Below, in pieces: positions 10,566 through 38,942 of a DNA stretch of 64,000 nt (positions are counted from its first letter, which is position 1; each line of letters starts with the position of its first letter). The translations under genes and the position numbers were made by a program. The stretch lies in IMG/VR virus record IMGVR_UViG_3300014205_000002, positions 144,265 to 208,264 of that record. One strand, written 5' to 3'. This DNA comes from a virus (Duplodnaviria > Caudoviricetes). The notes beneath the pieces were generated by a model. It did no database searches, was not told the DNA's origin, and saw nothing but the letters and a program-made list of their open reading frames with translations.

Positions 10566-11128
10566 CAGGGGGCCTCGGGTGCTTCTAGCGCCCCAGGGAC
10601 ACTCTCTAGGTAGGGCGCGGTCACGGCGGCGATCTCCGCCAACAGGGAATGGCACGACTCGATCTGGGAGTGAGTGCGCGTGACCAGGCCTTCGTATTCG
10701 GCGATCGCCGCGTCCGTGCGACCGCGTAGTTCCCGCAGGGCAGCGCGCAACTCGCCGACCTGGGTGGCGTAGAGGACGATGCGTTCGATTTTGACGACCA
10801 GCAGTTCACTTTCACTGCTGTCGTCGCGGGCGTCCAGCAGCGCGGCTTCGGCCTCCATCATATTGCGCTCCAGTACCCGATGTTCCTCACAGAGTTTCCG
10901 GGCGCGCACGAGCGCATGGTGCTGGTGTGCGCTCAGTTCGTCCAGCACTTGCGTCTGGCTGGCTCCAGTGGTAGCGATCCGCATGACCTGCATGAGAAGC
11001 TTCGACATCATTCTTCTGACGCTAGCAGCCTCGGCGGGCTTCGGCAGAATGAAGACCATACCGTGCTCTTGGTGCTCGGAAATGGCGTTATCTGCTCGTT
11101 GGAAGGACGCGGGATCGGTGAGGGACAT
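10565..11128 (-). CDS. Helical/coiled-coil hypothetical protein
   Basis: 187 aa, SD AAGGAGG. Confidence 0.7.
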   Translation of the reverse strand: MSLTDPASFQRADNAISEHQEHGMVFILPKPAEAASVRRMMSKLLMQVMRIATTGASQTQVLDELSAHQHHALVRARKLCEEHRVLERNMMEAEAALLDARDDSSESELLVVKIERIVLYATQVGELRAALRELRGRTDAAIAEYEGLVTRTHSQIESCHSLLAEIAAVTAPYLESVPGALEAPEAP

Positions 11129-11278
11129 CTACCTGACCTCCTTTAAAGTGTCGCTGGGGTGAGGCCAACCTTTCACGCGCATTACGCGCTGCGGGGAGTA
11201 GGTTCCGTCCGTGAAACGCGTCGGCGACACGATGGCGTGTGGGCCGTACAGGCGAGCAGGATGAATGAATGGGGCCAT
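11129..11278 (-). CDS. Small 49-aa ORF not in the ORF track (MAPFIHPARL...)
   Basis: Exactly fills the gap between the thyX stop and the next ATG. AAGGAG lies upstream. Confidence 0.5.
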   Translation of the reverse strand: MAPFIHPARLYGPHAIVSPTRFTDGTYSPQRVMRVKGWPHPSDTLKEVR

Positions 11279-12769: not shown

Positions 12770-13499
12770 CCTGTTTCTCCTTGGGGGCCTTGGGCGGCCG
12801 GGGGGACTTTGGTGGCTGTTTCATCGCCGAGTAGCGGGTCACGACCGGCACCGGCGGCCGGTAGACGACGAGCACGTTGGGGAAGGGGGCCGAGTCCGGC
12901 GCACCGCCGAAGAACAGTCGGCCCTTGATTAGGCGGACCTCGTCGGCCTTGCCGTCGACCCAATCGTGAAACCAGCAGGAATCGGTGCGGGCGGGCACGA
13001 GGCAAACTACCGTGCAGCCTTGCAGGCTCTCCTCGTAGGCCTTGCGCATCCAGTCGGCGATGCCGGGCACATAGAACTCGTTGTGGTGGTCGCTCTCGCC
13101 GAAGGCGGCCTCGTAGGCGGCCATGAGGCCAGGTACTTGCGCCAGTAGCTCATAGGCCTTCTTGACGCCCGGCAGGTTGGTGATGCGCATGGCGAGCCGA
13201 CCCAGGCACTTCTTCTTCTTGCAGTTCTTCACGCAGGGCTGCTCGGCGTCCCCATACGGCGGATTCATATAAAAGACCTTCGCGGGGCGTCCGCACAGCA
13301 GCTTGATCTTGTGCCAGATCTTCATCAAGCCGTTGGTTTCGCGGGTGAAGTAGACGGGGCATTTGTGGTTCAGGTCGTCGGCGCAGACGTCGACCTCGAA
13401 GCCGAACTCCTCATGGAGCGCGCCATAGAACGCGTCGGGCGTCGACCAGTTATCGGTGCTGGACGAGAACATCGCCGCCTTGTCGGTGGCGTGCGCCAT
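12750..13499 (-). CDS. Phage DNA N6-adenine methyltransferase (lambdoid/T1 Dam-type family)
   Basis: NWSTP, VDVCA, MNPPYG, VCLVPARTD, IKGRLFF, APFP. Carries a ~60-aa Cys-rich insertion. Confidence 0.9.
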   Translation of the reverse strand: MAHATDKAAMFSSSTDNWSTPDAFYGALHEEFGFEVDVCADDLNHKCPVYFTRETNGLMKIWHKIKLLCGRPAKVFYMNPPYGDAEQPCVKNCKKKKCLGRLAMRITNLPGVKKAYELLAQVPGLMAAYEAAFGESDHHNEFYVPGIADWMRKAYEESLQGCTVVCLVPARTDSCWFHDWVDGKADEVRLIKGRLFFGGAPDSAPFPNVLVVYRPPVPVVTRYSAMKQPPKSPRPPKAPKEKQVVQDPL

Positions 13500-14086
13500 C
13501 AGGCCCAGTCCTTCCCGTCGGCGGTGAGGTAGTTGCGGCGCGCCAGCTCCGTGATCACCTCGTGGGCGCGCGAGACGGGGTCATCGGCCTCAATGAAGAT
13601 CGTCTGTTCATAGAGTCCGAAATGGTCGATCGCTTCACACAGATGGTGATGGACCTCCTGAACGCCATGGAGGTGCCGGATACCGTTGTCCTCGGTGCCC
13701 TTGGAGTTGGGCGGCACCACGACGATCAGATCGTACTTCTCGGCCTCGCGACGGGCGATCTTCGCGTAGTCCTCGTTCACCGAGGGGGCCTGGTACATGG
13801 CGTAGGCGAGGAAGTCGAGCACGCCGCGATCGGCGATGAAGCGCTGGAGGTTCTGCTCGGCCTGAATCTGGGTGAACAGGGCATACCACTGAAAAGCCCC
13901 CATCTGCTCGGGCGGCACGGCGCTGGGCTTTTCATAGCCCATGGCCCGTGCGGCGGCACCCGGCCTCGACCAGGTGAGCAGATTGAGGTCGCCGTTGGCG
14001 GGCAGCCGGGCGTGCAGTTCTCGCGCGAGCGTGGTCTTGCCCCCGCCGGAGGAACCCGCGCATACGACGGATCGGAGTTTAGCCAA
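13499..14086 (-). CDS. P-loop NTPase, AAA_28/NadR-like nucleotide kinase
   Basis: GSSGGGKTT, FIADRGVLDFLAY, YDLIV, EDNGIR. TTG start with SD AGGAGG. Confidence 0.75.
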   Translation of the reverse strand: MAKLRSVVCAGSSGGGKTTLARELHARLPANGDLNLLTWSRPGAAARAMGYEKPSAVPPEQMGAFQWYALFTQIQAEQNLQRFIADRGVLDFLAYAMYQAPSVNEDYAKIARREAEKYDLIVVVPPNSKGTEDNGIRHLHGVQEVHHHLCEAIDHFGLYEQTIFIEADDPVSRAHEVITELARRNYLTADGKDWA

Positions 14087-14606
14087 GGGGGGCCTCCTGT
14101 CTGGGGTGACTCGCGCCAGCGAGCAGAGCGGCGATGATGGGCTCGGTCGCGAGCAGGCGTTCACGCAGGCCCGCGGGTGCGCGCCGGCGGATGCCGCGGT
14201 AGCGAACACAGGGGCCTTCGGGCCAGAGCGCGACGCCGCTCAGGCCGGCGTGCTGGATCGTGGCCTCTGACTCCTCGACTAGTTCGTGGAACCAGGTGCC
14301 GAGCCGGGCAACCTCTTCAATATAGAAGGCGTCACAGCCCGTCGGATGCGCGATAAAGACCTGTTGGTCGGACCGGAAGATGCAGTGCTGTTTCTCGACC
14401 ATCTGGCGGGCCAGGTTGATCACGCGCTGGCGTGTCTCGTGCTCCAGGGGCGGCATACGCGAGCGCGACGAGACCTCAACTGCGGCGAACCCCTCTTCGA
14501 GCAGGTAGGCGCGGGTGGCCGAAGCCGCCGACGCGAGGGTGTGGTCGCTCTCGTTGAAGAAGCGCGAGAACTCGCCCATGTTCGTCTTGACGGCGACCTC
14601 AATCAC
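14079..14606 (-). CDS. Hypothetical protein
   Basis: 175 aa, coupled to both neighbours. Confidence 0.6.
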   Translation of the reverse strand: MIEVAVKTNMGEFSRFFNESDHTLASAASATRAYLLEEGFAAVEVSSRSRMPPLEHETRQRVINLARQMVEKQHCIFRSDQQVFIAHPTGCDAFYIEEVARLGTWFHELVEESEATIQHAGLSGVALWPEGPCVRYRGIRRRAPAGLRERLLATEPIIAALLAGASHPRQEAPLG

Positions 14607-15175
14607 CTCACGGCCTCGGGCGGCACGCCGAGCACGAAGTCCTGGCCCTCGACCAGGCCTGCCTGGGCGAGCTGGTCGCGGACGCTCACGCCGACGGGAT
14701 CGATCCTGATCACCTCGCCGGCGGGGTCGTTACTGACGCCGAAGGGCAGCACCAGCAGCAAGGGGCTGTCGGCGGGGAAGGTTTGCTCGATGTGGCTTGC
14801 GAGTCCCTCGACGAGAATGCGCACGCATGCGAGCTTGCCCGCGGTGTTGCGGACCATGTCCTGGGTGCGCACGTAGTTGTCGGCCTTCTCATAGGTCTCG
14901 AACACGAGGATCGCGAAGGCGTCCTTGTAGATGTCGGAGACATGGGAGAAGTCGAAGCCGAGCGGCATGCGAGACTCGGCGTCGAGCAGGATCCAGCCCT
15001 TGCCGAGTTCCTCGCGACTCATGCAACAGGCCTTGAACTTCTTGCCGCTGCCGCAGCGGCAGGGCTTACGCAAGCCGAGGTCGACGGTCTTGCCTGACCA
15101 CTCGGCGGCGATCGACGGCCGCTTTGCGTCGAGGAACCAGGTGTTTTCGGGAGGTGCGGGGGGCGCGATCGTCAC
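14603..15175 (-). CDS. SEC-C motif protein
   Basis: KPCRCGSGKKFKACC. GTG start with SD AGGAG. Confidence 0.75.
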   Translation of the reverse strand: MTIAPPAPPENTWFLDAKRPSIAAEWSGKTVDLGLRKPCRCGSGKKFKACCMSREELGKGWILLDAESRMPLGFDFSHVSDIYKDAFAILVFETYEKADNYVRTQDMVRNTAGKLACVRILVEGLASHIEQTFPADSPLLLVLPFGVSNDPAGEVIRIDPVGVSVRDQLAQAGLVEGQDFVLGVPPEAVR

Positions 15176-15185
15176 GGGGGATCTC

Positions 15186-15560
15186 CTATAAGGCCTGGGA
15201 GCTGGCGAACATATCCAGCTGACCCTTGATGTGCTTGGTGCGTCGAACACGGGGCTTGCGCGTGACCGTGCCGCGTTTGATGAAGCGTGAGCAGCGAACC
15301 CTGGCGACGGTTTCAGTGGTGCCGAAGAGGGTGCTCTGCTCGCTGCTTTCGACCGATAGCTCTTTGGGTGGCGCGGGCTTGCATGAGCCGAGGGAGGAAA
15401 GGATCTTGCAGCGCCGGGTCCGGCTGCCGCCCCGCTGCGTGTCGGCGTAGGTGTAGGTGCGGTCGAAGTGACAGGCCTGACAGGGTCCACACTTCTCCAT
15501 CTGGGTGACGAGCTGGTTGATCGAGCAGTTCAGGGCCTTGGCGATCGCCGCGTGCGTCAT
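15186..15560 (-). CDS. Cys-rich basic hypothetical protein
   Basis: CGPCQACH...C...C...C. ATGA overlap with the upstream gene. Confidence 0.6.
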   Translation of the reverse strand: MTHAAIAKALNCSINQLVTQMEKCGPCQACHFDRTYTYADTQRGGSRTRRCKILSSLGSCKPAPPKELSVESSEQSTLFGTTETVARVRCSRFIKRGTVTRKPRVRRTKHIKGQLDMFASSQAL

Positions 15561-16414
15561 GTGCGATCGTTCCGCAGCGAGACCGTCGGTCGGGCCAGGC
15601 CGGGCGGCAGGGTCGGGAAGTCATTGAAGACGGCGGCGGAGATCTCGCGCGTGCCCGTCGAGATGTCGCCCGTCAGCCCCTTGGCCCGGTTGAACTCCTT
15701 GATCTTCTCGACCAGCTTGAGGTGATCCGACGTGACGTGCTCGCGGATATAGACCGTGCCGTCCATGATCGCCTCCATCCGGAGCGTGCTCATGCCGCAC
15801 TTATCGATCGCGCAGCGCCTGGCGTCGTCGGTCTTGGTGATAAAGATGCTCGGCTCCAAGTTACCAGGATCCGTCGAGTGGACGTCGAGGATGCCGTCCT
15901 TGTAGGCGTGGCCGAGACCCAGCTGTACGCAGGCTTGCAGGATCAGGGCATTGTTCGGAAGGCGGCAGTGGCACTGCGGCTCAAAGCTCGACTGCCCCTG
16001 CTTGCCGGACACGGTGAAGGTCTTGGTCTCCTTGGCGCGGTGCGGGCAGCTGAGGATCTTCGGCTCGGGCAGGCCCGCGAGCATGAGCAGCTGCTTGGTT
16101 TCGGCCACCACGATCTTGTAATCGTCGATATCGAAACCGGGGTCGAGCCCCTGGCTTTTCAGTGCCGCACCGTCGGAAATATAGGGGGCCATATCGATCC
16201 CCACGGGGGTAGAACCGTAGGTCTCGCAGAGTGCGCGAATGTGGTTGACCACCGGCCAGATCAACTCCTGCATCCCCGTCCCGAAAGGGGCGGGCGGAAT
16301 CAGGCCGGTCTTGGCGTGAATCTCCCTGGCGACGTCGGCCTTGAGGCGGCGCACCACGCCGTCGAGTTCGAAGAACACGGCCGTCTTCTTCTCGCCGAGA
16401 TAGATCGCGGTCAT
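15557..16414 (-). CDS. HAD-superfamily (GmhB/HisB-N-like) phosphatase homolog, degenerate
   Basis: AVFFELDGVV, CPH...CHCRLP. The catalytic Asp and Lys are substituted. Confidence 0.65.
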   Translation of the reverse strand: MTAIYLGEKKTAVFFELDGVVRRLKADVAREIHAKTGLIPPAPFGTGMQELIWPVVNHIRALCETYGSTPVGIDMAPYISDGAALKSQGLDPGFDIDDYKIVVAETKQLLMLAGLPEPKILSCPHRAKETKTFTVSGKQGQSSFEPQCHCRLPNNALILQACVQLGLGHAYKDGILDVHSTDPGNLEPSIFITKTDDARRCAIDKCGMSTLRMEAIMDGTVYIREHVTSDHLKLVEKIKEFNRAKGLTGDISTGTREISAAVFNDFPTLPPGLARPTVSLRNDRT

Positions 16415-18223: not shown

Positions 18224-18859
18224 TCAGCGCACGCCAGAGGTGCCCCAGCCACCCACCCGGTTGGACGGCGGCAGTGCGTCGACGGGCGTCCAGTCGCCCT
18301 CGACGTAGGCCTCGACACAGATCTGGGCGATGCGATCACCGCCGGTGACCCGGAACGGCCTGTCGGAGTGGTTGTAGAGCACCACGCCGATCTGCTCGCG
18401 GTAGTTGTTGTCGATCAATCCCGCACCGACCTCGATGCCCTCGTTTGAGGAGAGGCCCGAGCGACTCTCGACCACGATCTTGTAGCCGGGTGGCAGCGCG
18501 ACCTTGATGCCGATGCCGAAAGTCTTGCGGCCGCCTGCGGGAATGACGATACTGTCGGCGTTGCCCATGCGCAGAAACTCATAGCCGTCGTCGCCATTGC
18601 GGTACTTGAGGCTGTAGGCGAAGACGTCCGAGGCCACGTCGCCCGGCTGCATGGTCTTGGGCGCAGTGGCCCCTTTCATGACCACCGTGGGAATGCTCAG
18701 CTTGGGGGCGAGGCCCGCGAGTGCGACGATGGCGCGAGCCAGCTCCGGCGTGATGGCGATCGCGTCGGTGTTCAGGCTGCTGGAACCAGCCATGACCGGC
18801 AGGCGCTGGAGCGGCAACACGAGCTCGCCCTGGGCGTTGGTGTAGTGACTAGCGGGCAT
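18224..18859 (-). CDS. dut: Trimeric dUTPase
   Basis: ESRSGLS, GLIDNNYR, GDRIAQ, RVGGWGTSG. Confidence 0.93.
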   Translation of the reverse strand: MPASHYTNAQGELVLPLQRLPVMAGSSSLNTDAIAITPELARAIVALAGLAPKLSIPTVVMKGATAPKTMQPGDVASDVFAYSLKYRNGDDGYEFLRMGNADSIVIPAGGRKTFGIGIKVALPPGYKIVVESRSGLSSNEGIEVGAGLIDNNYREQIGVVLYNHSDRPFRVTGGDRIAQICVEAYVEGDWTPVDALPPSNRVGGWGTSGVR

Positions 18860-20732
18860 GGGGCAGCTCCTTGGTTACAGCGAGTCCTGCGCGCTTGACG
18901 AAGGGAAGGAACTCGGGGACGGGGTGGAGGATGCGCTCGCCGAGCGCGATCCTGATCTGGTTACCCAGATGCCAGCCGAATAGCGGGGGTACCGCATTGC
19001 CGACCTGCCTGTATTGGGCCGAGCGGGGGCCCTGGAAGACCCAGTCGTCGGGGAAACTCTGGAGCCTCGCGGCTTCGCGCACGGTCAGCCGGCGCAGCCT
19101 GCGTGGCGGCGGAGCTGGTACGATGTGGGTGTGGTTGGCCCCGCCCGAGGCGACGATCGTCTGCGCGGGCTGGTCCATGTCCTGGACGCGACCACGGCCG
19201 TTGAAGATGGTCTCGGCGGGGTTTCCGGGCCGGGCCATCAACTCCTTCGCGCGCTCCGAAGCGGGCACGATGGCGATCGCGTTGTCCTCGTGGTTGGGCA
19301 CGGGCAGCAGGTTGGCATTGCCGCAGTCCTGCTCGGCGATGATGGTCTTCGCTGGTGCGTCCCAGCTCATGGCCGGATTACTCAGCTTACCCGCGAGGGC
19401 GCTGGGCCTAGGCGGCGAGGCCGGCTCGTGGTTGGGGACGTCACCCATGATGAAGTCGACGTTACCCGAGGTGTTGATCGTGCGGCCTGGCGCATCGGGA
19501 TCGAGCAGCTTCATGCCCTGACCGACGTGCCCTGCGAGGATGGCCTCTTCATGCGTGCCCGTGTAGACGCTGGCCTCGTGGTTGGCGGGGATGGCCTGCT
19601 GGTGGTGGGCTCGTACGGTGTTGGCAGGCTTGTCCCAGGCGTGCAGGCCGTTGGGGCCGGCCCCGCGATCGGCGGCGTGCTCGATGTGCCTGATCTCACC
19701 GGGCGTGAGCGGGTGATTCACGTGGTTCTCGACCGGTAGCAGGTTCACGTTCCCCGAGCGCTGGTGGGCGATGATGCACGACGCGGGCTCGTCGAGCGCC
19801 ATCGGAGCCTTCATCGACCAGTCGCTCTCGCCGGTGAGCGCGGAGGGTACCGGCGGGGGCGCGGCCTCATGGTTCTCGACGGGGATCAGGTTGTTGGTGC
19901 CGGACTCCTGCTTGGCGATGATCGTACGCGCGACCTGGTCGAGTTCCATCGGTGGGTGTTTCTGAGCCCAGGAGCTGTCGGCGATCGCCGCACATGGTGG
20001 CGGCGGAGGAGCTGGCTCATGGTTGGCGGCGGGGGCGAACGCGGGACCGTAAGGGGCCGGCAGATCGCTGATGGCCTGACGGACCGTGACCCATCTGCGC
20101 AGCGTACCGAAGAAGCCCGGAGTGGGAGTGTCCGCATGCGTCGGCTTCGGCCAGGGGAAGAAGCTCTCGTCGCGTCGGCCGAAGAAGATCACGCGGATGC
20201 GCTTCTGGGGAACGCCGTAGTCGGCCATGTTGATCATGCGGTACTCGACGCTGTAGCCGATGTCCCTGAAAGCCTGGAGGATCACGTCCTTGACCAGAGT
20301 CTGGTCGTCGTCGGTCTTCATCGTGAGTAGCCCCTTGACGTTCTCCATGACGAAACCCCACGGCTTGGCCTCGTCGACGACCCGTACAAACTGCCAGAAC
20401 AGCTTGTTGCGCGGATCGTCCGCCTCGCGCTTGCCAGCGGTAGAGAACCCCTGGCAAGGTGGCCCGCCCACCACGAGGCGGGCCTGACCGGAAACCAGTC
20501 CTGCCGCCTCAAGGATGACCTCGGTGGGAATGGCGCAGATATCGCCCTTGAGCACGGGGATCCCCTGGCGGTTGTGGCGCAGCGTGTCGACGGCGTGCCC
20601 GTCGAGTTCGACCGCAACGCGCACGTCGAACCCCGCGGACTCCAGCCCGATATCCAGGCCCCCGGCCCCCGAGAACAGTGAGATGATCGGCATCGGCCGG
20701 TTGGTCGGACCGTGCATGGGGACGATGGTCAC
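18849..20732 (-). CDS. dcm: DNA cytosine-5 methyltransferase with an expanded, repetitive variable region
   Basis: FSGAGG, GGPPCQGFS, MENVKGL, YGVPQKRIR, RRLTVREAARLQSFPD, YRQVGNAVPP. Confidence 0.95.
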   Translation of the reverse strand: MTIVPMHGPTNRPMPIISLFSGAGGLDIGLESAGFDVRVAVELDGHAVDTLRHNRQGIPVLKGDICAIPTEVILEAAGLVSGQARLVVGGPPCQGFSTAGKREADDPRNKLFWQFVRVVDEAKPWGFVMENVKGLLTMKTDDDQTLVKDVILQAFRDIGYSVEYRMINMADYGVPQKRIRVIFFGRRDESFFPWPKPTHADTPTPGFFGTLRRWVTVRQAISDLPAPYGPAFAPAANHEPAPPPPPCAAIADSSWAQKHPPMELDQVARTIIAKQESGTNNLIPVENHEAAPPPVPSALTGESDWSMKAPMALDEPASCIIAHQRSGNVNLLPVENHVNHPLTPGEIRHIEHAADRGAGPNGLHAWDKPANTVRAHHQQAIPANHEASVYTGTHEEAILAGHVGQGMKLLDPDAPGRTINTSGNVDFIMGDVPNHEPASPPRPSALAGKLSNPAMSWDAPAKTIIAEQDCGNANLLPVPNHEDNAIAIVPASERAKELMARPGNPAETIFNGRGRVQDMDQPAQTIVASGGANHTHIVPAPPPRRLRRLTVREAARLQSFPDDWVFQGPRSAQYRQVGNAVPPLFGWHLGNQIRIALGERILHPVPEFLPFVKRAGLAVTKELPHAR

Positions 20733-25983: not shown

Positions 25984-27134
25984 GCCGGCACCTGGGCGAA
26001 ATGGGCCTCGATCGCGTCCGGTAGCATCAATGGGTCAAGCACACCCAGATACTGCATGATCAGCGCGGTGGACGAGCTGAGGGCGATCGCCTGCTCCAGC
26101 TGGCGTTGATTGACGAAGCCCTGGCTCCAGGCGACCATGGCCCGGGCGCTGGCCTGCGGCCCGGTGTAGGGATTGGCCTCCTGGGTCAGGCCTGCCACGG
26201 CGGCCTCCGCACCCTGGCGGTGAGCCTGTTCAACGCCCACGACCTGCCGGAGATCCTCGCTGCTCGTGAACAGGCGCTCGCGCACCTTGGCGTAGAGCAC
26301 CCGGTAGCGCGAGAGGCAGCGCATGATTCGCTCGAAGTTGGTGCCGGCCTGTTCAGTCTCGGGCTCTCCCCGCAGCGCGTCGGCGATCAGGGCGTCGCGA
26401 TACGACAAGGCATCCTTCGCCATGCCGGCCTCGGACACGGCGGCGGCCTCGCGGCTGCGGGCGATTGCAAGTTCACCGGTACTCGCGAGGGCCTCAGCGC
26501 GCACCAGCTCCGTGCTGGCCTTGAGCGTCTCGATCGCCTTGGTTAGCTGTTCGCTCTCGGCCAGTAGCTCGCAGACGCGCTGCTCGGCAGACTCCGCGCG
26601 CTCCTCTTGGGTGCGGATCTGGTCGATATACTGCGCCTCAATGGGCGTGGCTCCGCCGGTGCCGTAGGCCAGGAAGTTGTCGAGGAAAGCGTTGTAGCCA
26701 TCGCAGCTGCGGCCATTGAGTGCTTCTTCGACCATTTCCTGGCGGTCAAGTGGGAGGAGTGCTCCGTTGTAGAGGCCGTTGAGCAGGCATTCATAGTGGA
26801 GCTTGCGCAGCACGGGCTTGAGGATGGCGCTGCCCGATAGCTCGGCGCGCAGGAGCTGGTTCTCCTTGGCGAGTTGGCCGTAGCTGAGTTCGTAGTTGCG
26901 TATCGTGTCGAGCGCGCCAGCGAGGTAGCGACCAGCCTCTTCGGAACCGGCCGCGAGCTGCTTAATCAGCGCCGTGAGGTCCTGGCGGGTGAGGTGTTTG
27001 AGGTTCTCTCCCTGGTTCGTGTGGCGCTGCACCAACTCGGGGATGCCGGCGATCGCCGCCTGGACCACCATGAGCGGGCTGGTGAAGTGGCCGTTGGTCA
27101 CAACGACGGGGATGTCGGGGGTAGATTCACTCAT
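25980..27134 (-). CDS. Coiled-coil protein with a C-terminal RMF-like motif
   Basis: AHRQGAEAAVAG...NPY...AWSQGF. Confidence 0.6.
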   Translation of the reverse strand: MSESTPDIPVVVTNGHFTSPLMVVQAAIAGIPELVQRHTNQGENLKHLTRQDLTALIKQLAAGSEEAGRYLAGALDTIRNYELSYGQLAKENQLLRAELSGSAILKPVLRKLHYECLLNGLYNGALLPLDRQEMVEEALNGRSCDGYNAFLDNFLAYGTGGATPIEAQYIDQIRTQEERAESAEQRVCELLAESEQLTKAIETLKASTELVRAEALASTGELAIARSREAAAVSEAGMAKDALSYRDALIADALRGEPETEQAGTNFERIMRCLSRYRVLYAKVRERLFTSSEDLRQVVGVEQAHRQGAEAAVAGLTQEANPYTGPQASARAMVAWSQGFVNQRQLEQAIALSSSTALIMQYLGVLDPLMLPDAIEAHFAQVPA

Positions 27135-27997
27135 GAGGCTTGTAGCTCCTTGCGTTGCTTGCGCAGCATGGACTGGTAGGTGAGCACGGAACTGACGTCC
27201 GCAAAGCCCAGCTGCTGCTTGATGTCGTGGGGGTCCTGATTGGCTTCGAGGAGTTCGATGATGCGGCTCGCGCGCATCACCTGGGGGGTCAACTGGGGCG
27301 TCTGTGCGCCCGCGGCGTTGCGTACGATCAGCCAGACGACATGCCGGCTGATCATGCCGCCCTTCATACCGTAGAACATGAGGTCCTTGCGCGAGGCCGA
27401 CTTCGGGACGGCGCGCACCTGGGCGTAGGCTACATAGGCCTCTTGGGCGATCGCGTCCAGCACCAGGAGGTCGTCGCGCTCCGCACTGACGAACAGCAAG
27501 GAGCCGGACCGAAAGAGGCTCTCGCCGTCGCCGGCGGCGTTGAAGCGCATGGCCTGAATTTCACCGGGCCGTATGCCCAGCCGGAACAACTCCATGATGA
27601 AGCGCCGCGAGGTGCCGAGGTGGTAGCGCGCGCAGGCCTCGGTGATCGCATCAGGGGGGTAGAAGGCGCTGTCCTTGCCGTCTGGACTCGGCCACTCCAC
27701 GTCATGCAGCAGCGCCGTGTCCAGTTGGCCCCGCTCGATGTGGTGGCGCAGGAAGCCGCGCAGGGCGGCCCCCTTGCGTGTGGCGGTGTTCGGCCTGGCC
27801 CGGCGGCGGGTGTGGGTCATGTAAGCCGCCAGAATCTGGCTGGAGAGGTCGCCGAGATCCCGTGCGTCCGGGCAGTGCTCTGCGAGGTACTGAGTGAAGT
27901 CGGCGAGGTCCCCGCTGTAGGCGCTCGTGGTCGCGACCGCCTTGTTCTGCTCGATCAGCTCGTTGACGTAGGCCTGGGTGGACTGAACGATGTTCAC
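27131..27997 (-). CDS. XerC/D-like tyrosine recombinase with a degenerate catalytic pocket
   Basis: TTSAYSGDLADFTQYL, ALRGFLRH, GIRPGE, LTPQVMRAS, IKQQLGFAD, LTY. GTG start overlaps the upstream stop. Confidence 0.8.
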   Translation of the reverse strand: MNIVQSTQAYVNELIEQNKAVATTSAYSGDLADFTQYLAEHCPDARDLGDLSSQILAAYMTHTRRRARPNTATRKGAALRGFLRHHIERGQLDTALLHDVEWPSPDGKDSAFYPPDAITEACARYHLGTSRRFIMELFRLGIRPGEIQAMRFNAAGDGESLFRSGSLLFVSAERDDLLVLDAIAQEAYVAYAQVRAVPKSASRKDLMFYGMKGGMISRHVVWLIVRNAAGAQTPQLTPQVMRASRIIELLEANQDPHDIKQQLGFADVSSVLTYQSMLRKQRKELQAS

Positions 27998-28347
27998 AGC
28001 TTTTTTCCTCGCTCCTGGCCGATCTTGACGAGCACGTCGAAGCGGCGGCAAGCGTCCTCGAACATGGGCCCGACGACGGCGCATTCGGTGTCCTGCATGT
28101 ACAGGTTTGCGATCATGGCCTTCTGGCCCGTGGTGACGCCGTCACCGACCCAGAGCGCCCATTCCTGGTTGAAGTTGTCCTTGGTCATGGCCCTGAGCGC
28201 GTCCTCGGAGAACGACTCGATGTCGCGATCCTCTTCGGTCTCGATCGCCGCCGGGATGTCCCAGATGGGGAAGGGAACAAGAGAGCCCTTCTTCTCCTTC
28301 TTCTCCGCCGGCGCTTTCGGCTTACTGGCGACGGATCGTCTTGCCAT
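27994..28347 (-). CDS. Hypothetical protein
   Basis: 117 aa, coupled. Confidence 0.7.
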   Translation of the reverse strand: MARRSVASKPKAPAEKKEKKGSLVPFPIWDIPAAIETEEDRDIESFSEDALRAMTKDNFNQEWALWVGDGVTTGQKAMIANLYMQDTECAVVGPMFEDACRRFDVLVKIGQERGKKL

Positions 28348-32951: not shown

Positions 32952-32970
32952 TGACAGAATCCTCCTCGGG

Positions 32971-33222
32971 TTAATTGGTCAGCTTCTCGACACAGGCGAT
33001 GACGTCGTCGACGCTGTTGATCTTCTCGGCTTCATCATCGGACATCTCAATGTCGAATTCGTCTTCGATCGCCATCACCAGTTCCACTTGATCCAATGAG
33101 TCCGCCCCGAGATCTTCGTCGAACTTGGCCTCGCGGGTCACGACGTCCTCATGGACACCGAGTCGCTCTGTGACAATAAACCGGATGCGGTTGAAGGTGG
33201 CGGTCTGGTTGATGGCGTCCAT
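32971..33222 (-). CDS. acpP: Acyl carrier protein
   Basis: [40 protein letters not shown], with the phosphopantetheine-accepting Ser intact. Confidence 0.95.
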
Positions 33223-33552: not shown

Positions 33553-34377
33553 TCAGGCATTGGTCACCCAGGGGTTCTCGCCATTGGGCCCTGCGGGCAG
33601 GGAGAGATTGGCGGGGAGGCCGACGGTGTGGAATTCGTGCGGCCGCCATTCGTGGCCGCAGCCCTTGACGTGGTGCGGGCTGTGCGGGCTGCTCTGATCC
33701 TTGTCGAAGTAGGTGTAGTCCACGCAGCGGTGGGTTTTGTGCGGTATGCAGGCCCATTCTCCGGTGTCGACGTGGCGCATCCCGCAGCCGGGGCAGAACA
33801 GATGGTCGGCGATCGGCCTTGCGTGGCTGACCAACTCCCGCCAGTTGGCGGGGATGATTGGCACCTCGTCGTCGCACCACCAGGCCCCGACGCGGAAGAC
33901 CGCGAGCACGCTGTTGATGTCGTCCGCGAGGTCGCGCACCCACTTCGGCAGGTCGACCTCGGTCCAGCCCTCGGTGCAGATGTCGGGCATGTTTTCCGTC
34001 ATCTCCGCGGTGATGTGCTTGAGCAGGGGCTTGAGGTAGTCCCCGTCGAGGCGATCGCGATCGTCGTCGGGCAACTCCTGCTCGATCATGCCCAGCAGTC
34101 CCTCGGAGTTGAAGGGCAATTCGGAGTCGGCGGGGACGCCTTCCTCAAAGGGGATGAAATCCTGAATGGTGTCACCGAGGTGGCTCGCGGTCACCGAGGC
34201 GGCGCGGAAGCGGGCGATCCACGGCTCCTGGCTGTCTGGCTCAATCTCGGCGATCGCGCAACTTTCCAGGAAGGTCTGGAGGTCGCTGGAGAACTCACTG
34301 CCGCGCCGGAGGGCGATCATCTCGCCCTCTTTCCACGCGACGCGGGGGGCCTCAGCCCAGGTCGGCTCGTCCGACAC
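33553..34377 (-). CDS. Hypothetical protein with a C-terminal Cys/His Zn-binding domain
   Basis: GTG start coupled to the upstream stop. CPGCGMRHVD..HKTHRC..CGHEW. Confidence 0.65.
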   Translation of the reverse strand: MSDEPTWAEAPRVAWKEGEMIALRRGSEFSSDLQTFLESCAIAEIEPDSQEPWIARFRAASVTASHLGDTIQDFIPFEEGVPADSELPFNSEGLLGMIEQELPDDDRDRLDGDYLKPLLKHITAEMTENMPDICTEGWTEVDLPKWVRDLADDINSVLAVFRVGAWWCDDEVPIIPANWRELVSHARPIADHLFCPGCGMRHVDTGEWACIPHKTHRCVDYTYFDKDQSSPHSPHHVKGCGHEWRPHEFHTVGLPANLSLPAGPNGENPWVTNA

Positions 34378-35081
34378 TAGACCAGCTCCGCGTCGAGTTC
34401 GCACGCGGCCGGAAGCGGAGCAGCGGTCAGGCGACCAGGTGCCCATGAGCCAGCGGCGATCGCCTCACGATCGGCGAGAGTGGGCAGCTGCACCTGGCAC
34501 TCGGGGACCAGGCGCAGGATCTCTTCGCGGGTGGTCGCCGTATTGATGACGGTGCGCTTTTCGGTCATCTCCAGGTTGTAGGCGTCTGTGGCTGCCTTCT
34601 CCGCAGCCTCGAACTGGCGGTTATAGGCCTTGATTGGCTGGTTGCGATCGCGCTTGACGTGGTTGACGACGTCTTCGGAGGCGGCAGTGCCGTCGCTGCC
34701 GCTGTGGTTGATCATCAGGGTGCCCGAGCTGTGGACAGCCATCGGTGCGGCCTGGTAGCCATAGGTCTTGGCGACGGACTGAGCGAGTGCGAGGACAGCA
34801 TCGAGGGCAATCTTGTACTCGGGCGTCAACGCAATCTCCGCCTGGATGTCCTTGAGAACCTCCGAGGTCTGGAGCAACTTCTGGCACTGGGAGACCGGCT
34901 CTGGGCGCTTACGCAACCGGAACAACTCCATCATCTGGGCGCGCTGGGCCTGGGTCAGCCGGCCCTCCTTCATGAGCTTGAGCTCGGCCTTACGCAGGTC
35001 GATCTCAGCCAGGCGAATGCGGGTCTCGTCGCTGGGCTGGGCGACGGCGAGGGCGGTGGAGGTCTTCTTCGGGGTGGCCAT
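34377..35081 (-). CDS. Helical hypothetical protein
   Basis: 234 aa, SD GAGG. Confidence 0.7.
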   Translation of the reverse strand: MATPKKTSTALAVAQPSDETRIRLAEIDLRKAELKLMKEGRLTQAQRAQMMELFRLRKRPEPVSQCQKLLQTSEVLKDIQAEIALTPEYKIALDAVLALAQSVAKTYGYQAAPMAVHSSGTLMINHSGSDGTAASEDVVNHVKRDRNQPIKAYNRQFEAAEKAATDAYNLEMTEKRTVINTATTREEILRLVPECQVQLPTLADREAIAAGSWAPGRLTAAPLPAACELDAELV

Positions 35082-35106: not shown

Positions 35107-35138
35107 TGACAGAATGAGGGGGAGCGTGTGGCGATCGC
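35107..35138 (-). promoter_or_regulatory. Bipartite motif GCGATCGC-N14-CATTCTGTCA, copy 1
   Basis: Intergenic, upstream of the 35081 start. Same layout at 36769 and 38331. Confidence 0.65.
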
Positions 35139-35346
35139 GGGTTAGGTGCCGGGGATGCGCAGTTGCTGACCGGCAACCGTGACAACAATGGGGGTGCGGG
35201 ACTGCAAGTTCGCGAACAGGGCCTCGAACTCGGGAGTTCCTCGCCTGGCCTGGATGTCGATGGAGAACTCCATCACCTCGTCGGGCAGTGGTCTGTCGTC
35301 GCGATCGCTCCATGAGGCGCGAAAGACGAGAGGAGCCTGGGCGTCC

Positions 35347-35847
35347 TCAGGCCATCACCATGCGGGCCGAGGTGTACTTCTTATAGAGCGGGTGGTTGGG
35401 CTGGCCGGTCTTGGAGAGCCCATCAAGCGAGTGCAGGAGGTGCTCGCTCAGGAGTTTGCGCACGGCCTTGTCACGATTGAGGAGCTTGCCGTGGTTGCCC
35501 CAGGCAGCGATCAGGAGCTGACTGTCGTTGGCGGCCTTGAGGATGGCGGCGTTGTTGCGGGGGCCAACGCAGTCGATCTCGTAGGCATTGTCTTTGAGGA
35601 CGGCGGGGCTTGTCTCGCGGTAGGCGAAGAGGTTCGCGACGGTGATGCCGCCGTAGCCCCATTTGTCCGCGAAACCCATGCACTTGCGAATGGTGGCGTC
35701 GTCGACCTCGGCGTCAGCGGTCGATGGGTTGAGCATAATGAAGCCGACGAGACCGGCTTCCGGCTTCCAGATACGAGTCAGGGCGTAGCGATACAACCCA
35801 GACTCGCAGAGGTCGGCGGTCTTTGTGATGACGGTGTCCTTTTCCAA
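35347..35847 (-). CDS. DUF1643-family protein
   Basis: YRYALTRIW, FIMLNPSTAD..DDATIRKC, NLFAYRET, IAAWG, PNHPLY. Confidence 0.88.
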   Translation of the reverse strand: MEKDTVITKTADLCESGLYRYALTRIWKPEAGLVGFIMLNPSTADAEVDDATIRKCMGFADKWGYGGITVANLFAYRETSPAVLKDNAYEIDCVGPRNNAAILKAANDSQLLIAAWGNHGKLLNRDKAVRKLLSEHLLHSLDGLSKTGQPNHPLYKKYTSARMVMA

Positions 35848-35852
35848 GGTGG

Positions 35853-36494
35853 CTAGTACCTTTCTCTCTCGGCTGTGAAGCCGCCGTTCCCGCAGTTAAA
35901 GCAGAGCGTGCCTTCGACCTGGACCTTGCAGTAGTGCATGACGTTGCACTCTGAGCAGCGTCGCCATTCGGTCCCAGGCTTTGGCCCAGGCTCTCCAGGC
36001 AGGCGATCGCGGATGGGCTTCATCGGGTAGGTGGGCGGGAACGGCGGTGCTACAGGAAAAACGTAGGGGACCTTCTCCACCACGAACTCTTCGGGGGCAA
36101 GGAGCGCGGGGCGATCACCCCGAGCGTTGCGCCAGATTAGCTCATGGAGGACTGCGTCCACATCGTCGGGCATGCGCGCCTCCATGTGCTTGAACACGAC
36201 GTCAGCTACGGCCACCTTTCCGGCGATATCAGTGGGCAAGATCGGCTGAGGTGGCGGTATCTGGGGTGGTGGAGGTGCTTGGCGCTGGGTGAGCAGAGCC
36301 CGCATCTCGTCGACGGTGACACCCAGGCCCAGTACGGTCTTGGCGGTCTTGGCGTGAGCGACCTGCTCGCGCCGCAGGGCTTCGGTGAGCGTGGCGATCG
36401 CCAACTCGGCCGTGGCTACGTCCCCAGCGAGTTGGGCTGCACGGCGCTGCGACTGGACCGCACGCCGATCCCATTGCACGCTGAGTGTAGACAT
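35853..36494 (-). CDS. Hypothetical protein, coiled coil plus C-terminal Zn ribbon
   Basis: CSEC...CFNCG. Confidence 0.65.
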   Translation of the reverse strand: MSTLSVQWDRRAVQSQRRAAQLAGDVATAELAIATLTEALRREQVAHAKTAKTVLGLGVTVDEMRALLTQRQAPPPPQIPPPQPILPTDIAGKVAVADVVFKHMEARMPDDVDAVLHELIWRNARGDRPALLAPEEFVVEKVPYVFPVAPPFPPTYPMKPIRDRLPGEPGPKPGTEWRRCSECNVMHYCKVQVEGTLCFNCGNGGFTAERERY

Positions 36495-36754
36495 TACGCT
36501 TTGACCTCCGACGCGCTGAACTCGATGAAGTTCTCGACGAACTCCGGCCCCATTACGATGGCCTTGTTCGCCAGGGCGGAGACGATGTCCAGTTGGAGCA
36601 AGGCGGCATCGCGGTAGTGACCGATGGGTGTGCTCTCGACGATGGTGTCGTAGAGCTTCTTGACCTGGGCGCGAACCGCGGTGATCGCAGCGACATCAGC
36701 TTGCGTCGGCGCTTGGTAGTCATGAGGGTGGCGGCCGGCGTAGGATTGGGTCAT
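36494..36754 (-). CDS. Acb2/Tad1-like helical-hairpin protein (candidate nucleotide-signal sponge)
   Basis: HDYQAPTQAD..ITAVRAQVKKLYDTIVESTP..RDAALLQLDIVSALANKAIV. SD GAGGAG. Confidence 0.55.
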   Translation of the reverse strand: MTQSYAGRHPHDYQAPTQADVAAITAVRAQVKKLYDTIVESTPIGHYRDAALLQLDIVSALANKAIVMGPEFVENFIEFSASEVKA

Positions 36755-36768
36755 ATGGTGCTCCTCGT

Positions 36769-36800
36769 TGACAGAATGTGATCGACTCTATGGCGATCGC
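36769..36800 (-). promoter_or_regulatory. Bipartite motif GCGATCGC-N14-CATTCTGTCA, copy 2
   Basis: Intergenic, directly before the SD of the 36754 gene. Confidence 0.65.
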
Positions 36801-36802
36801 TT

Positions 36803-37162
36803 TCAGGGGGTGATGGGGTTTCCGTTGGCGTCCCGCAGGAAGAAGTAGAGCTTGCTCTTATCGGTGTCGCTGATCGACACGCAGATGGCACCCAGGCCTT
36901 GGAGTGGGCCCTCGTCGAAGATGCCGAACAGGCCGTTGAGGACACCGAGCAGGCCCACCACATAGCAGTGCTCGTCCTGCTGGGTAGCAACATTGACGAC
37001 GGTGCTGCTCTTTGCGACCTGGACTGTTGGGTGATCCGCCAACTCCAGGGTATTGACGCGGGTGCGGATCTCGACCAGGTTGTGGATCGCTCCTGGATCC
37101 AGGCTGGCGAGCTCATTCAAGAAGCGCACTAACTCGGCGAGCGTGACGGAGGGCTTGATCAT
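36803..37162 (-). CDS. Hypothetical phage protein
   Basis: 119 aa. LADHPTVQV..VGLLGVLNGLFG. Confidence 0.7.
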   Translation of the reverse strand: MIKPSVTLAELVRFLNELASLDPGAIHNLVEIRTRVNTLELADHPTVQVAKSSTVVNVATQQDEHCYVVGLLGVLNGLFGIFDEGPLQGLGAICVSISDTDKSKLYFFLRDANGNPITP

Positions 37163-37165
37163 GGC

Positions 37166-38305
37166 CTAGTAGCCTTCGTGTTCGTGGATGGTGTAGTACT
37201 TCGTCGCGAGCATGGCCGGACCAGGCTCAAGGACCACGTCTTCATCGGGGTCGTCCTTGAGGATTGAGTCCCGCTCAAGCTCGGCTGAGGCCTTGCTTGG
37301 GCAGGTCATTGGCGAACTCTGCCGAGGGCCCACTTTGTAGGTTTGGAGCGTGGTGTTGCCGCATTCGCTGTGGAGCGCGCCGCCCGCGCCGACGCCCGTC
37401 CGAACGACCCAGCAGCCGGTGCGAATTGGCACCATTAGATTGCAGTGGAGGCAGCGGATTCCCTCCAAGCGCCCATGGCCGAAGACCGAGTAGCCAACAC
37501 CCTCGTCGGTCTCGGCCGCACGACTGAGCGCCTTGCTATGAAGGTTGGCAGCAGCGGCATCGAGCCCGTACTGCTCGTGTGGCACGGGTGCCTCGACGCT
37601 GTATGAGTCGCCCTTGGCATAGTCGATACCGATCACGCTCTCGGCGTTGAGGGCGATCGCGTCGATCTTCTCGGCACCAGGCAGGACGAAGCAGGCTGAC
37701 AGCTGTCCAGTGGGCTTGCGCCTGGGCAGGAGGCGATCGTCCACGCCGTAGAGGGTGAGCAATGCGAGGTCGCCGCCGGCGTGGTAGGTGACCTCGACCT
37801 GGGGGCCGCCCTCGACCTCGTGCTCGGCGTCGAGTATCTCGATGCCCTGGGTCTTCATGAGGGTGACCAGACGCTTGGCCTGTCGAACCATTCCCGCAGG
37901 GTCGATGCCGATGTGAATGAAGCTCTCACTGGAACGCGCGCCCGCTTCAATCTCAACGGGGACGAAGCCAGCTCCGGTGAGCAGCTGCCAAGTTCTGAGG
38001 ATATTGGCAGGCACTTCGTCGTGGGTGATGGGCTCCGCGAGAACGATGGCGCAGTCTTCCTCGTCGGTGCCCTCGAAGTCGAGCGCGTAGCACTCGTCGG
38101 CGATCGCGATGACCGCCTCCGCGCGCGAGTTGATCTTGCTGATGCGATCGTTGGTGATGTGGCAGTAGACCTTGCCCACTTCCTGAATGGCCGTGTGGTA
38201 GTCGAACAGCTCGCGCATCACCTTGTCGGGGTCGAGTCGGCCCGTCGCCGGGTCTTCCACGAGGGGCTTCCAGAAGCTGGCGTAATTCTTCTCGTAGTCT
38301 TGCAA
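37166..38305 (-). CDS. Mosaic hypothetical protein containing an RNR active-site peptide
   Basis: TTG start, SD AAGGAG. Internal TGQLSACFVLP. Confidence 0.7.
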   Translation of the reverse strand: MQDYEKNYASFWKPLVEDPATGRLDPDKVMRELFDYHTAIQEVGKVYCHITNDRISKINSRAEAVIAIADECYALDFEGTDEEDCAIVLAEPITHDEVPANILRTWQLLTGAGFVPVEIEAGARSSESFIHIGIDPAGMVRQAKRLVTLMKTQGIEILDAEHEVEGGPQVEVTYHAGGDLALLTLYGVDDRLLPRRKPTGQLSACFVLPGAEKIDAIALNAESVIGIDYAKGDSYSVEAPVPHEQYGLDAAAANLHSKALSRAAETDEGVGYSVFGHGRLEGIRCLHCNLMVPIRTGCWVVRTGVGAGGALHSECGNTTLQTYKVGPRQSSPMTCPSKASAELERDSILKDDPDEDVVLEPGPAMLATKYYTIHEHEGY

Positions 38306-38330
38306 TCCGGGCTCCTTTGGCTCTTGCTGC

Positions 38331-38361
38331 TGACAGAATGTGGCAGGTGCGAGGCGATCGC
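38331..38361 (-). promoter_or_regulatory. Bipartite motif GCGATCGC-N13-CATTCTGTCA, copy 3
   Basis: Intergenic, upstream of the 38305 start. Confidence 0.65.
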
Positions 38362-38368
38362 GCTCCCC

Positions 38369-38875
38369 TTACTCGCCGGTCTCGGGAAGTTTGGTCGTGC
38401 CGTCCTTCGGCAGGCGCTCCACGATGCGCCTGAACACGCGCTCCAGTCGATCCGACTGTTCAATTAGACGAGCCGCCTCGATGGCGTGGTGGCGCGCTTC
38501 CGGGCTGGCGTTCTCCGAGATGACGGCGAAGGGAGCCATGTCCGTCGAGTAGACCTCGCAGAGCGTGACGGCGAACTCCGCCTCGTCTCGCGTCAGCATG
38601 GCATACCCCAGCGTGTTGCCGTTTGCGCGGCCTGACGACTCAGCTACGTCCTGCTTGCTCATTGTCTGAATGGTCCAGTGGTACACATCGGCCGGTAGTC
38701 CGAACGAGTGGTCTTTTCCCTTGAAGATGACCATCCCTGGTACGACCGACAGGCCAATGTGGCTTGGATGCGGGTCCGACGGAAAGATTTCCGTGATGTC
38801 CTTGTAGTCCGTTTTCAGGGCCTTGCAGACGACTTTTACGGGCATATCCAGGGTTCCTTTCGGTCGCTTAATCAC
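38369..38875 (-). CDS. Hypothetical protein
   Basis: First gene of the leftward block. Start may be MPVKV. Confidence 0.65.
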   Translation of the reverse strand: MIKRPKGTLDMPVKVVCKALKTDYKDITEIFPSDPHPSHIGLSVVPGMVIFKGKDHSFGLPADVYHWTIQTMSKQDVAESSGRANGNTLGYAMLTRDEAEFAVTLCEVYSTDMAPFAVISENASPEARHHAIEAARLIEQSDRLERVFRRIVERLPKDGTTKLPETGE

Positions 38876-38898: not shown

Positions 38899-38942
38899 AT
38901 TATACGCCTATGTGCGACAGGAAGCAAGCAAGGTGGTATAAT
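38899..38942. promoter_or_regulatory. Divergent sigma70-like promoters at the strand switch
   Basis: - strand TTGCTT-N17-TATAAT (38927-38899). + strand extended -10 TGGTATAAT (38934-38942). Confidence 0.7.

Follow-up and report, generated by a model that had tools for sequence, protein, structure and literature searches.

A bipartite motif built on the HIP1 octamer fills intergenic gaps of a single phage gene block and most likely marks local internal promoters or regulator sites

The gene block

The window (the whole stretch of DNA analysed here) is the last 64 kb of the 208-kb record of an uncultured virus. It carries a compact block of small orphan genes on the minus strand, in which three of the four real non-coding gaps (48–63 nt) are filled by copies of a bipartite motif. 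The fourth gap (∼70 nt, before a 44-aa ORF) holds only a lone GCGATCGC octamer (35301–35308), and the other junctions of the block measure −4 to +9 nt. A candidate promoter for the head of the block (38899–38927, minus strand; TTGCTT-N17-TATAAT) was read directly from the sequence 53 nt upstream of the likely start of the first gene (38845); a consensus scan did not call it, as its −35 hexamer matches at 3/6 positions only. A divergent sigma-70-like promoter (38914–38942, plus strand; GCGACA-N17-TATAAT) serves plus-strand genes. The first gene of the block (38369–38875, minus strand) encodes an orphan protein of 158–168 aa. It is the sole gene upstream of motif copy 1 and, by this position only, a candidate regulator; it could be assigned to no family, and its Atlas matches are weak and of low confidence. 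A search of the block for an HTH or regulator identified none.

The genes that follow the motif copies are arranged in short, tightly packed runs on the minus strand. Downstream of copy 1 lies a sub-unit (36803–38305) composed of a 379-aa ORFan (37166–38305) and a 119-aa gene (36803–37162), 3 nt apart. Copy 2 precedes a second sub-unit (35142–36754) with genes for 86-aa, 213-aa and DUF1643 (35347–35847) proteins, separated by −1 and +5 nt, and the 44-aa ORF. Copy 3 stands before a 234-aa ORFan (34377–35081), the first gene of the next run. Neither the 379-aa nor the 234-aa gene has homologues besides itself, and comparison of the block with the GenBank phage collection returned the DUF1643 gene as the sole match. 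The 86-aa protein has an Atlas feature score of 0.89 and TM scores of 0.70/0.92 to Acb2/Tad1-hairpin clusters, and no Pfam match at E ≤ 0.01, to PF24729 or otherwise, or sequence match in the PDB. It is plausibly an Acb2/Tad1-hairpin protein, as a lead only, in line with the original prediction, which had one motif copy directly before an Acb2/Tad1-like gene (copy 2, 14 nt before the ATG). The genes flanked by the motif copies are not paralogous, and duplication of a cassette was rejected on comparison of these genes and gaps. The same strand also encodes, 7 kb further downstream, a Phage_integrase-family gene (tyrosine recombinase; 27131–28084).

Three perfect copies of the motif

The motif, GCGATCGC-N13/14-CATTCTGTCA, occurs in three exact copies, all on the minus strand, co-oriented with the genes and confined to 3.3 kb. 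Copy 1 (38331–38361, N13) lies between the 168-aa and 379-aa genes, from 7 nt past the stop codon of the former to 25 nt short of the TTG start (38305) of the latter. Copy 2 (36769–36800, N14) begins 2 nt past the stop of the 119-aa gene, leaving 14 nt to the ATG (36754) of the 86-aa Acb2/Tad1-hairpin-like gene. For copy 3 (35107–35138, N14), the corresponding distances are 3 nt from the stop of the 44-aa ORF and 25 nt to the ATG (35081) of the 234-aa orphan gene. The original prediction had placed three copies at these positions, 14–25 nt before start codons, and exact matching and the measured distances bear it out. All copies are perfect, with 18/18 fixed bases identical, and their spacers are wholly divergent at a constant box-to-box distance (13/14 nt). 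Outside the two boxes the three gaps have nothing in common, the identical segments being 9–12 nt long. The spaced motif appeared in 0/100 dinucleotide-preserving shuffles; CATTCTGTCA occurs four times genome-wide against 0.15 expected (Poisson P ∼2 × 10−5), and 3/5 ATTCTGTCA sites carry GCGATCGC at one of two offsets, for which the chance probability is ∼1.5 × 10−8. The three-copy motif is therefore far beyond chance and statistically solid. The one further CATTCTGTCA, at genome position 40874, is within a gene and is evidently a chance occurrence.

The gaps themselves show few other signals. The distance from the end of CATTCT to the start codon is 18–29 nt, and that from the box to the Shine–Dalgarno (SD) sequence varies from 2 to 14 nt. 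AT-richness was considered as a promoter hint and rejected, since the gaps are not AT-rich (the copy 3 gap is 28% AT). RNA folding compared with shuffles gave z values of +2.3 (copy 1, less structured), +0.3 and 0.0, and no conserved fold. We found no minus-strand terminator in the gaps, no Rfam family at E ≤ 1, no ssDNA hairpin shared by the three gaps on either strand, and no local inverted repeats in them.

Distribution of the motif and its boxes

A scan of the whole genome returned no degenerate copies of the motif; the next-best sites have at least three mismatches, lie inside genes and occur at the null rate. The further spaced copies that the original prediction expected from such a scan are thus absent. 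Among phage records that share the sigma family described below, the motif is absent, and even a relaxed form is absent from the whole records searched. An exact-motif scan of IMG/VR gave three matches, all intragenic or on the opposite strand, and scans of metagenomes and species genomes gave 30 and 24 matches, all single copies scattered across many phyla. These frequencies in public collections are about those expected by chance for 18 fixed bases. The motif is private to one genome and is not a genome-wide promoter class.

The downstream box also occurs alone. A lone ATTCTGTCA (GATTCTGTCA) at 32952–32960 on the minus strand lies between the SD sequence GAGGAG and the ATG of a 121-aa gene; the box before the 32951 start in the original prediction is therefore real. 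It adjoins that ATG downstream of the SD, lacks an upstream GCGATCGC, and has 13/14 nt in common with the box region of copy 2. This box cannot act as a −10 element for the 121-aa gene and may be a relic or a chance match.

The upstream box is abundant in its own right. GCGATCGC is found 52 times in the window (5.3 in shuffles) and 120 times in the genome, or 576 per Mb (0.58 per kb), which makes it the commonest palindromic octamer of this genome. Coding sequence contains 106 copies, whereas shuffling of synonymous codons leaves 37 ± 5 and shuffling of codon order 17 ± 4. The octamer is thus over-represented beyond composition and codon usage, as HIP1 is in cyanobacteria. In genes, 72% of the copies are in one reading frame. 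Intergenic copies (14/120, 16 expected) indicate no general intergenic enrichment, and the loci of relatives are poor in GCGATCGC. A ninth base, C, follows the octamer at 60% of sites and is therefore uninformative.

The public runs that contain the stretch comprise one DNA run, from a landfill metagenome and probably the source of the record; of the RNA runs checked, none is listed as containing the sequence. The contigs of the landfill run include one identical contig, with the motif free of variants, and no form that skips the DNA between copies; the sole joint among them is a 35-nt artefact. This result is neutral with regard to recombination. Among cultured phages, the nearest have Salmonella and Vibrio as hosts (∼30% identity). 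No cyanophages were found among the relatives of the phage and no tRNAs, sought as a host clue, in the phage itself.

Promoters, RNA polymerase and methylases of the phage

The main upstream signal of the phage is CCCTATAAT(A), which precedes large genes, that for the tail sheath among them, has ∼20 intergenic copies across the genome and is kept at a syntenic locus in relatives. Examination of 20 intergenic TATAAT sites for a −35-like element found none, so that the genome offers no precedent for bipartite recognition. The distance from these sites to the start codon is roughly 19–44 nt. The phage encodes a fused beta-beta′ RNA polymerase (RNAP) that carries an intein, as well as a sigma-70-family protein; the phage sigma factor whose presence the original prediction had suggested looking for does exist. 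The RNAP maps to genome positions 9898–15765 and the sigma protein to 61957–62919. The profile of the latter matches best with primary (group 1) sigmas over regions 2–3, and not with ECF sigmas; in region 4.2 there is a tail match only, which is non-significant. An AF2 model of the protein (pLDDT 50) was set aside. A search for a T7-type RNAP gave no match, with an uninformative control. In the distantly related phage Arash, a sigma-70-family protein and a beta-beta′ RNAP are present in the virion (PMC10585845). The phage also encodes a Dam-type methylase and a C5 methylase. With its own RNAP, sigma factor and two methylases, phage-specific or methylation-sensitive recognition of the motif is conceivable.

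Judged as sigma-70 elements, the boxes are atypical. Against a TAnnnT pattern for the −10, CATTCT keeps A(−11) and T(−7) and has C at −12, and no other TAnnnT is shared by the three gaps. Against TTGACA at 17 ± 1 nt, GCGATC matches at 2/6 positions with a spacer of 15–16 nt. A consensus promoter scan did not call the three sites. The −35/−10 geometry originally proposed, with CATTCT as the −10, thus fits only loosely, with a spacer of 15–16 rather than 17 nt and no T at −12. Taking CATTCT as the −10 places GCGATCGC at about −34 to −26, with its centre at ∼−30 (−29.5 to −30.5).

Comparison with known systems

A geometric parallel is offered by the middle promoters of T4, in which a MotA box near −30 replaces the −35 element, 11–13 bp upstream of a sigma-70 −10 (‘sigma appropriation’). 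T4 middle promoters are scattered in early regions, whose expression they prolong, and comprise dozens of degenerate copies. Likewise, GCGATCGC would be centred at ∼−30, 13–14 bp before CATTCT, in a block with an early-type head promoter. However, the T4 box is TGCTT rather than GCGATCGC, CATTCT has no T at −12, the three copies are perfect, and this phage has its own RNAP and sigma. The MotA-type geometry fits (gap of 13–14 nt), with an atypical −10, and the search of the block identified no activator.

Other systems share some features. In IS10 pIN, Mu mom, P1 cre and pap, promoters or operators are sensitive to Dam methylation through a GATC within the promoter or an upstream element. The upstream box here also contains GATC, and the phage encodes Dam-family and C5 methylases, so that methylation state might gate binding at this box as well. 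E. coli sigma-E promoters, recognised by an ECF sigma, have the form GGAACTT-N16-TGTCAAA. The TGTCA of the downstream box resembles their −10 core, and both are bipartite with a strict spacer. Unlike sigma-E promoters, however, the motif has no GGAAC in its upstream box, its spacer to TGTCA is 18–19 nt, the preceding conserved CATTC would be unaccounted for, and, in contrast to ECF systems, the phage sigma aligns best with group 1 sigmas. The motif resembles the phage’s own CCCTATAAT(A) class in being intergenic and co-oriented, at a similar distance from start codons; that class differs in its canonical TATAAT, lack of an upstream element, ∼20 copies and conservation in relatives. Similar to integron attC sites and T4 PeSL, the repeat lies between small, unrelated, promoterless-looking genes with a tyrosine recombinase nearby, but it has no hairpin or inverted repeats, and homologous exchange would need longer stretches of identity.

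Cyanobacterial HIP1 is typically present at 300–2700 per Mb and is accompanied by GATC- and CGATCG-specific methyltransferases (PMC4390886). The phage has the identical octamer at a density within this range, together with Dam-type and C5 methylase genes. It differs from cyanobacteria in that the enrichment is modest, most genic copies share one frame, no cyanophage relatives were found, and the octamer is paired with a second box at constant spacing. A promoter role for HIP1 was presented as new in the original prediction; a regulatory role is not wholly so. Sll1130, a transcription factor, was proposed to bind HIP1, a claim later disputed (PMC6331805), and ChIP of RNAP shows an enrichment of peaks at HIP1 (PMC3219970).

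Possible functions of the motif

Fixed spacing, divergent spacers, a single orientation, lack of structure and variable distance to the ribosome-binding site (RBS) together point to DNA-level, orientation-specific protein recognition sites. Constant box spacing with divergent spacers and flanks is the hallmark of two DNA contacts by one protein or complex, and the varying distance to the SD and start (14 to 25 nt to the start) argues against an RBS-linked RNA signal. The copies are most likely local internal promoters or regulator sites. We tentatively propose that they are factor-dependent internal promoters, which would restart or boost transcription of three sub-units (of two, four and several genes) within an early or accessory block of anti-defence type, itself headed by a TATAAT promoter. 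CATTCT would then be a weak −10 that retains the key A(−11) and T(−7), GTCA the discriminator, and a purine 7 nt downstream the start. The palindrome GCGATCGC near −30 would be read otherwise than by the standard contact of sigma region 4 with TTGACA, perhaps by a dimeric activator or by the phage’s own transcription machinery. We infer promoter function, reader protein and methylation effect alike. In favour of promoters, the distance from CATTCT to the start codon falls within the range of the phage TATAAT sites, and the bipartite, oriented and intergenic arrangement is as for an RNAP holoenzyme site. The phage promoter class envisaged in the original prediction survives in these respects and not as a class, the genome having only three copies. 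Genuine promoter classes tend to have more members, and degenerate ones, which counts against reading three perfect copies as promoters. So do the lack of a −35-like element at the TATAAT sites of the phage, the atypical −10 and spacer, gaps that are not AT-rich, and the finding that HIP1 in cyanobacterial genomes has no general association with transcription start sites (TSSs) (PMC5861425).

Several alternatives deserve consideration. Rather unlikely, in our estimate, is that the sites bind a regulator without being promoters (as an operator, roadblock, pause site, or loading site for an anti-termination or processivity factor) and so modulate read-through from the head promoter. Constant spacing, divergent spacers and intergenic placement would fit equally, 18/18 identity is more in keeping with a highly specific binding protein than with a promoter class, a dimer would match the palindromic half, and the head promoter is followed by no terminator within the block. 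Yet the site as a whole is asymmetric and always points in the direction of transcription, operators within operons are uncommon, and the block yielded no HTH or regulator. It is improbable that CATTCTGTCA alone is functional and GCGATCGC a passenger from an old common origin, retained by whatever force maintains the octamer genome-wide, so that HIP1 would not be a recognition element: each of the three boxes that look functional carries the octamer at 13/14 nt (P ∼1.5 × 10−8) across spacers diverged to randomness, and the octamer is not enriched in intergenic DNA generally (14/120 versus 16 expected). This is set against its rank as commonest palindromic octamer, kept above codon-usage expectation, the conservation of cyanobacterial HIP1 sites beyond expectation (PMC5861425), the uninformative ninth base (C at 60% of sites), and the box at 32952, which occurs without the octamer.

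A motif acting at the RNA level, as a processing site or translational operator read single-stranded in a polycistronic mRNA, is a distinctly unlikely reading as well. Transcripts from the head promoter would include both boxes, unstructured regions are accessible (with copy 1 less structured than shuffles), and the lone box lies within a translation-initiation region; however, the position relative to SD and start varies (2–14 nt to the SD, and downstream of it at 32952) as the box spacing stays constant, and there is neither an Rfam family nor a conserved fold. We regard it as very improbable that the copies delimit a mobile cassette or recombination module, on which the tyrosine recombinase at 27131–28084 might act. 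Direct repeats do surround small groups of ORFans, with the Phage_integrase-family gene 7 kb downstream on the same strand, and a passage of PMC6331805 cites older literature that ties HIP1 to rearrangements; but a shared ssDNA hairpin or inverted-repeat architecture is lacking, identical segments are just 9–12 nt, and there is no paralogy among the flanked genes. A chance pairing of the boxes in a genome rich in GCGATCGC could draw on the frequency of the octamer (0.58 per kb) and on the evidently fortuitous CATTCTGTCA at genome position 40874, but it is effectively refuted by the statistics (0/100 shuffles; combined probability ∼10−8; all copies in gaps, in one orientation, within 3.3 kb).

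A more specific version of the promoter reading, which we consider quite improbable, is that the phage sigma-dependent RNAP uses a methylatable GCGATCGC as upstream element of a small set of promoters, with the Dam or C5 methylase or both, or replication-dependent hemimethylation, timing the anti-defence genes. Since both methylases are encoded, the idea of methylation sensitivity is not far-fetched. This more specific reading, if true, would for the first time assign the HIP1 octamer a defined function, that of a promoter element. As promoters or operators, the copies would show how an anti-defence block is sub-divided in an uncultured jumbo-type phage that has its own RNAP and sigma, and would be a rare case of the enigmatic GCGATCGC within a defined recognition site. 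In practical terms, the motif is a clearly delimited target for binding assays or in vitro transcription. Phage biologists may find its wider setting (an intein-bearing fused beta-beta′ RNAP, a sigma factor, a promoter class with a −10 only and intergenic repeats private to the block) of more interest than the motif.

A private bipartite motif in a block of small genes

Three intergenic gaps on the minus strand carry exact copies of a bipartite motif, GCGATCGC-N13/14-CATTCTGTCA, as the original prediction had reported. Its upstream part, GCGATCGC, is the HIP1 octamer. Copy 1 (N13, 38331–38361) lies 7 nt past the upstream stop codon and 25 nt from a TTG start (38305). Copies 2 (36769–36800) and 3 (35107–35138), both N14, lie 2 and 3 nt past their upstream stops and 14 and 25 nt from ATG codons at 36754 and 35081, respectively. 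Each of these three starts has an SD ahead of it. A scan of the whole record (208,264 bp) recovered no further copies. When mismatches were tolerated, the three 18/18 copies were followed by a clean gap, with nothing below three mismatches; matches with at least three are intragenic and as frequent as under a third-order Markov null. The motif is a real, private, three-copy, regulatory-looking signal rather than a phage-wide promoter class, and the original interpretation is borne out in part. We found no similarity among the three gaps beyond the two boxes and no paralogy among the genes flanking the copies, so the motif is not left over from a recent duplication.

All three copies lie within a minus-strand block of small, mostly ORFan genes that runs downwards from 38.9 kb. 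All but four gene junctions in the block measure −4 to +9 nt; those four are the motif gaps, of 63, 48 and 60 nt, and a gap of ∼70 nt before a 44-aa ORF, which holds a lone GCGATCGC (35301–35308) with no CATTCTGTCA partner. The motif gaps seem to exist solely to hold the motif. Copy 2 directly precedes the gene for an 86-aa protein (36494–36754, minus strand), as originally noted; the protein's likeness to Acb2/Tad1 is a lead only, resting on an Atlas placement adjoining Acb2/Tad1-hairpin clusters (TM 0.70/0.92, feature score 0.89). The presence of this protein and of a DUF1643 protein (35347–35847, minus strand) fits an anti-defence or accessory role for the block. Among the orphan genes lies one for an acyl-carrier-like protein of 83 aa (PP-binding, E 8e-12; 32971–33222, minus strand). 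No minus-strand terminators were found in the block.

Transcription machinery and promoter-like signals

The window covers the final 64 kb of the IMG/VR virus record. The record has direct terminal repeats and ∼64% GC, and its sequence is present in a single run, a landfill metagenome. Among cultured phages, Salmonella phage Arash and Vibrio phages D69/D148/D181 come nearest (∼30% identity in tail sheath and RNAP). No tRNAs were found in the genome. A tyrosine recombinase (Phage_integrase and N-terminal SAM-like domain; window 27131–28084, minus strand) occurs in a phage that otherwise appears lytic and jumbo-like.

Unexpectedly, the phage encodes a fused beta-beta′ RNA polymerase of 1955 aa (genome 9898–15765, plus strand, outside the window), with beta domains Rpb2_3 and Rpb2_6 and beta′ domains Rpb1_1, _2 and _3. 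Its beta′ part is interrupted by an intein that carries a LAGLIDADG domain, and the polymerase shares 31–34% identity with the RNAP of Arash and D69/D148/D181. A search for a phage sigma factor, as the original prediction had proposed, identified a 320-aa sigma-70-family protein (genome 61957–62919, plus strand, outside the window), divergent from the tail sheath gene, whose family profile aligns to primary sigma factors over regions 2–3 (E ∼1e-16). Three homologues (∼46% identity) come from long metagenomic contigs in which synteny is conserved, with Dam-type methylase and PhoH genes next to them. Virions of Arash are rich in beta, beta′ and sigma proteins (PMC10585845). This machinery is arguably more notable in this genome than the three-copy motif.

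Among intergenic words CC(C)TATAATA dominates, in many cases with (A/C)CCTCGGAAG after it. It forms the main promoter-like class, without a −35 element; no upstream element is conserved in the class (<0.3 bit from −40 to −25). Of the 25 TATAAT hexamers, 18 precede genes, the tail sheath gene and other large genes among them, and relatives have the class at the syntenic divergent locus too. Sites in the window are at 6358 (−), 6393 (+), 38904 (−), 38937 (+) and 55122 (+), with ∼15 more outside it. TTGCTT-N17-TATAAT (38899–38927, minus strand) heads the motif-bearing block; divergent from it, GCGACA-N17-TATAAT serves plus-strand genes.

The HIP1 octamer in the genome

GCGATCGC is the most frequent palindromic octamer of the genome (120 copies, 576 per Mb). 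The 106 copies in coding regions compare with 37 ± 5 under synonymous-codon shuffling and 17 ± 4 under codon-order shuffling, so the excess exceeds what codon usage gives. It is already present at the CGATCG/GGCGATCG level, and 72% of genic copies share one frame (GCG-ATC-GCn). Of the 120, 14 are intergenic (16 expected), showing no intergenic preference. The window has 0.81 copies per kb and the rest of the genome 0.47 per kb, and density peaks at genome 170–180 kb. The phage encodes a 627-aa C5 cytosine methylase (window 18849–20732, minus strand) and a Dam-family (MethyltransfD12) methylase (genome 68629–68949, minus strand, outside the window), a pairing that Elhai linked to HIP1-rich genomes (PMC4390886). 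GCGATCGC is scarce in contigs sharing the sigma gene (46% identity).

Regulatory ideas about HIP1 have some precedents: Sll1130 binding to GGCGATCGCC was reported, then disputed (PMC6331805), and S. elongatus RNAP ChIP peaks are enriched at HIP1 (PMC3219970). On a genome-wide scale, however, no relation of HIP1 to TSSs is seen (PMC5861425). A defined bipartite recognition site containing the GCGATCGC octamer would, if true, be a new instance.

Possible functions of the motif

The strict box spacing with unrelated spacers, the gene-matching orientation, the motif-holding gaps and the variable distance to SD and start together point to a site in double-stranded DNA that a protein recognises through two contact surfaces. 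The most economical reading, which we favour tentatively, is that the copies may be internal, factor-dependent promoters. With CATTCT as the −10, the two bases that matter most, A(−11) and T(−7), would be retained; a purine lies 7 nt downstream, and the 18–29 nt from hexamer to start codon fall inside the spread seen for TATAAT sites of this phage. On this reading GCGATCGC would occupy positions from about −34 to −26, with its centre close to −30. The −35/−10 geometry originally proposed is matched only loosely, since the spacer would be 15–16 nt and the placement of GCGATCGC not classical. The MotA box of T4 middle promoters is likewise centred near −30, and those promoters, too, are located inside early regions. 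We stop short of even confidence because the copies are few and all perfect, the −12 T is absent, the phage's other promoters lack any upstream element and the motif gaps are not AT-rich.

A regulator site that is not a promoter would share the protein-site evidence, and we consider it rather unlikely. Less probable again is that the box alone functions, with GCGATCGC as passenger. A lone ATTCTGTCA does precede the 32951 start as predicted (32952–32960, minus strand), between SD (GAGGAG) and ATG with no GCGATCGC upstream; CATTCTGTCA itself occurs four times genome-wide against 0.15 expected. In all there are five ATTCTGTCA sites, each on the minus strand (the one at genome 40874 is intragenic), and the probability of GCGATCGC at one of two offsets in three of five sites is ∼1.5e-8. 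We put an RNA-level signal on a par with the passenger reading; the motif gaps showed neither a stable nor a shared fold as RNA or ssDNA, and the block gave no Rfam match. A recombination or cassette boundary, to which the recombinase gene at 27131–28084 might point, is very improbable, and chance can practically be set aside, with no match in 100 dinucleotide-preserving shuffles.

A second intergenic repeat, CATTGAAAG(GAG), is private to another small-gene block outside the window, with five plus-strand copies (genome 89775, 89955, 90358, 91022 and 94003) 5–9 nt before start codons; TTT(A/G)CTT(A/C) precedes three of the five.
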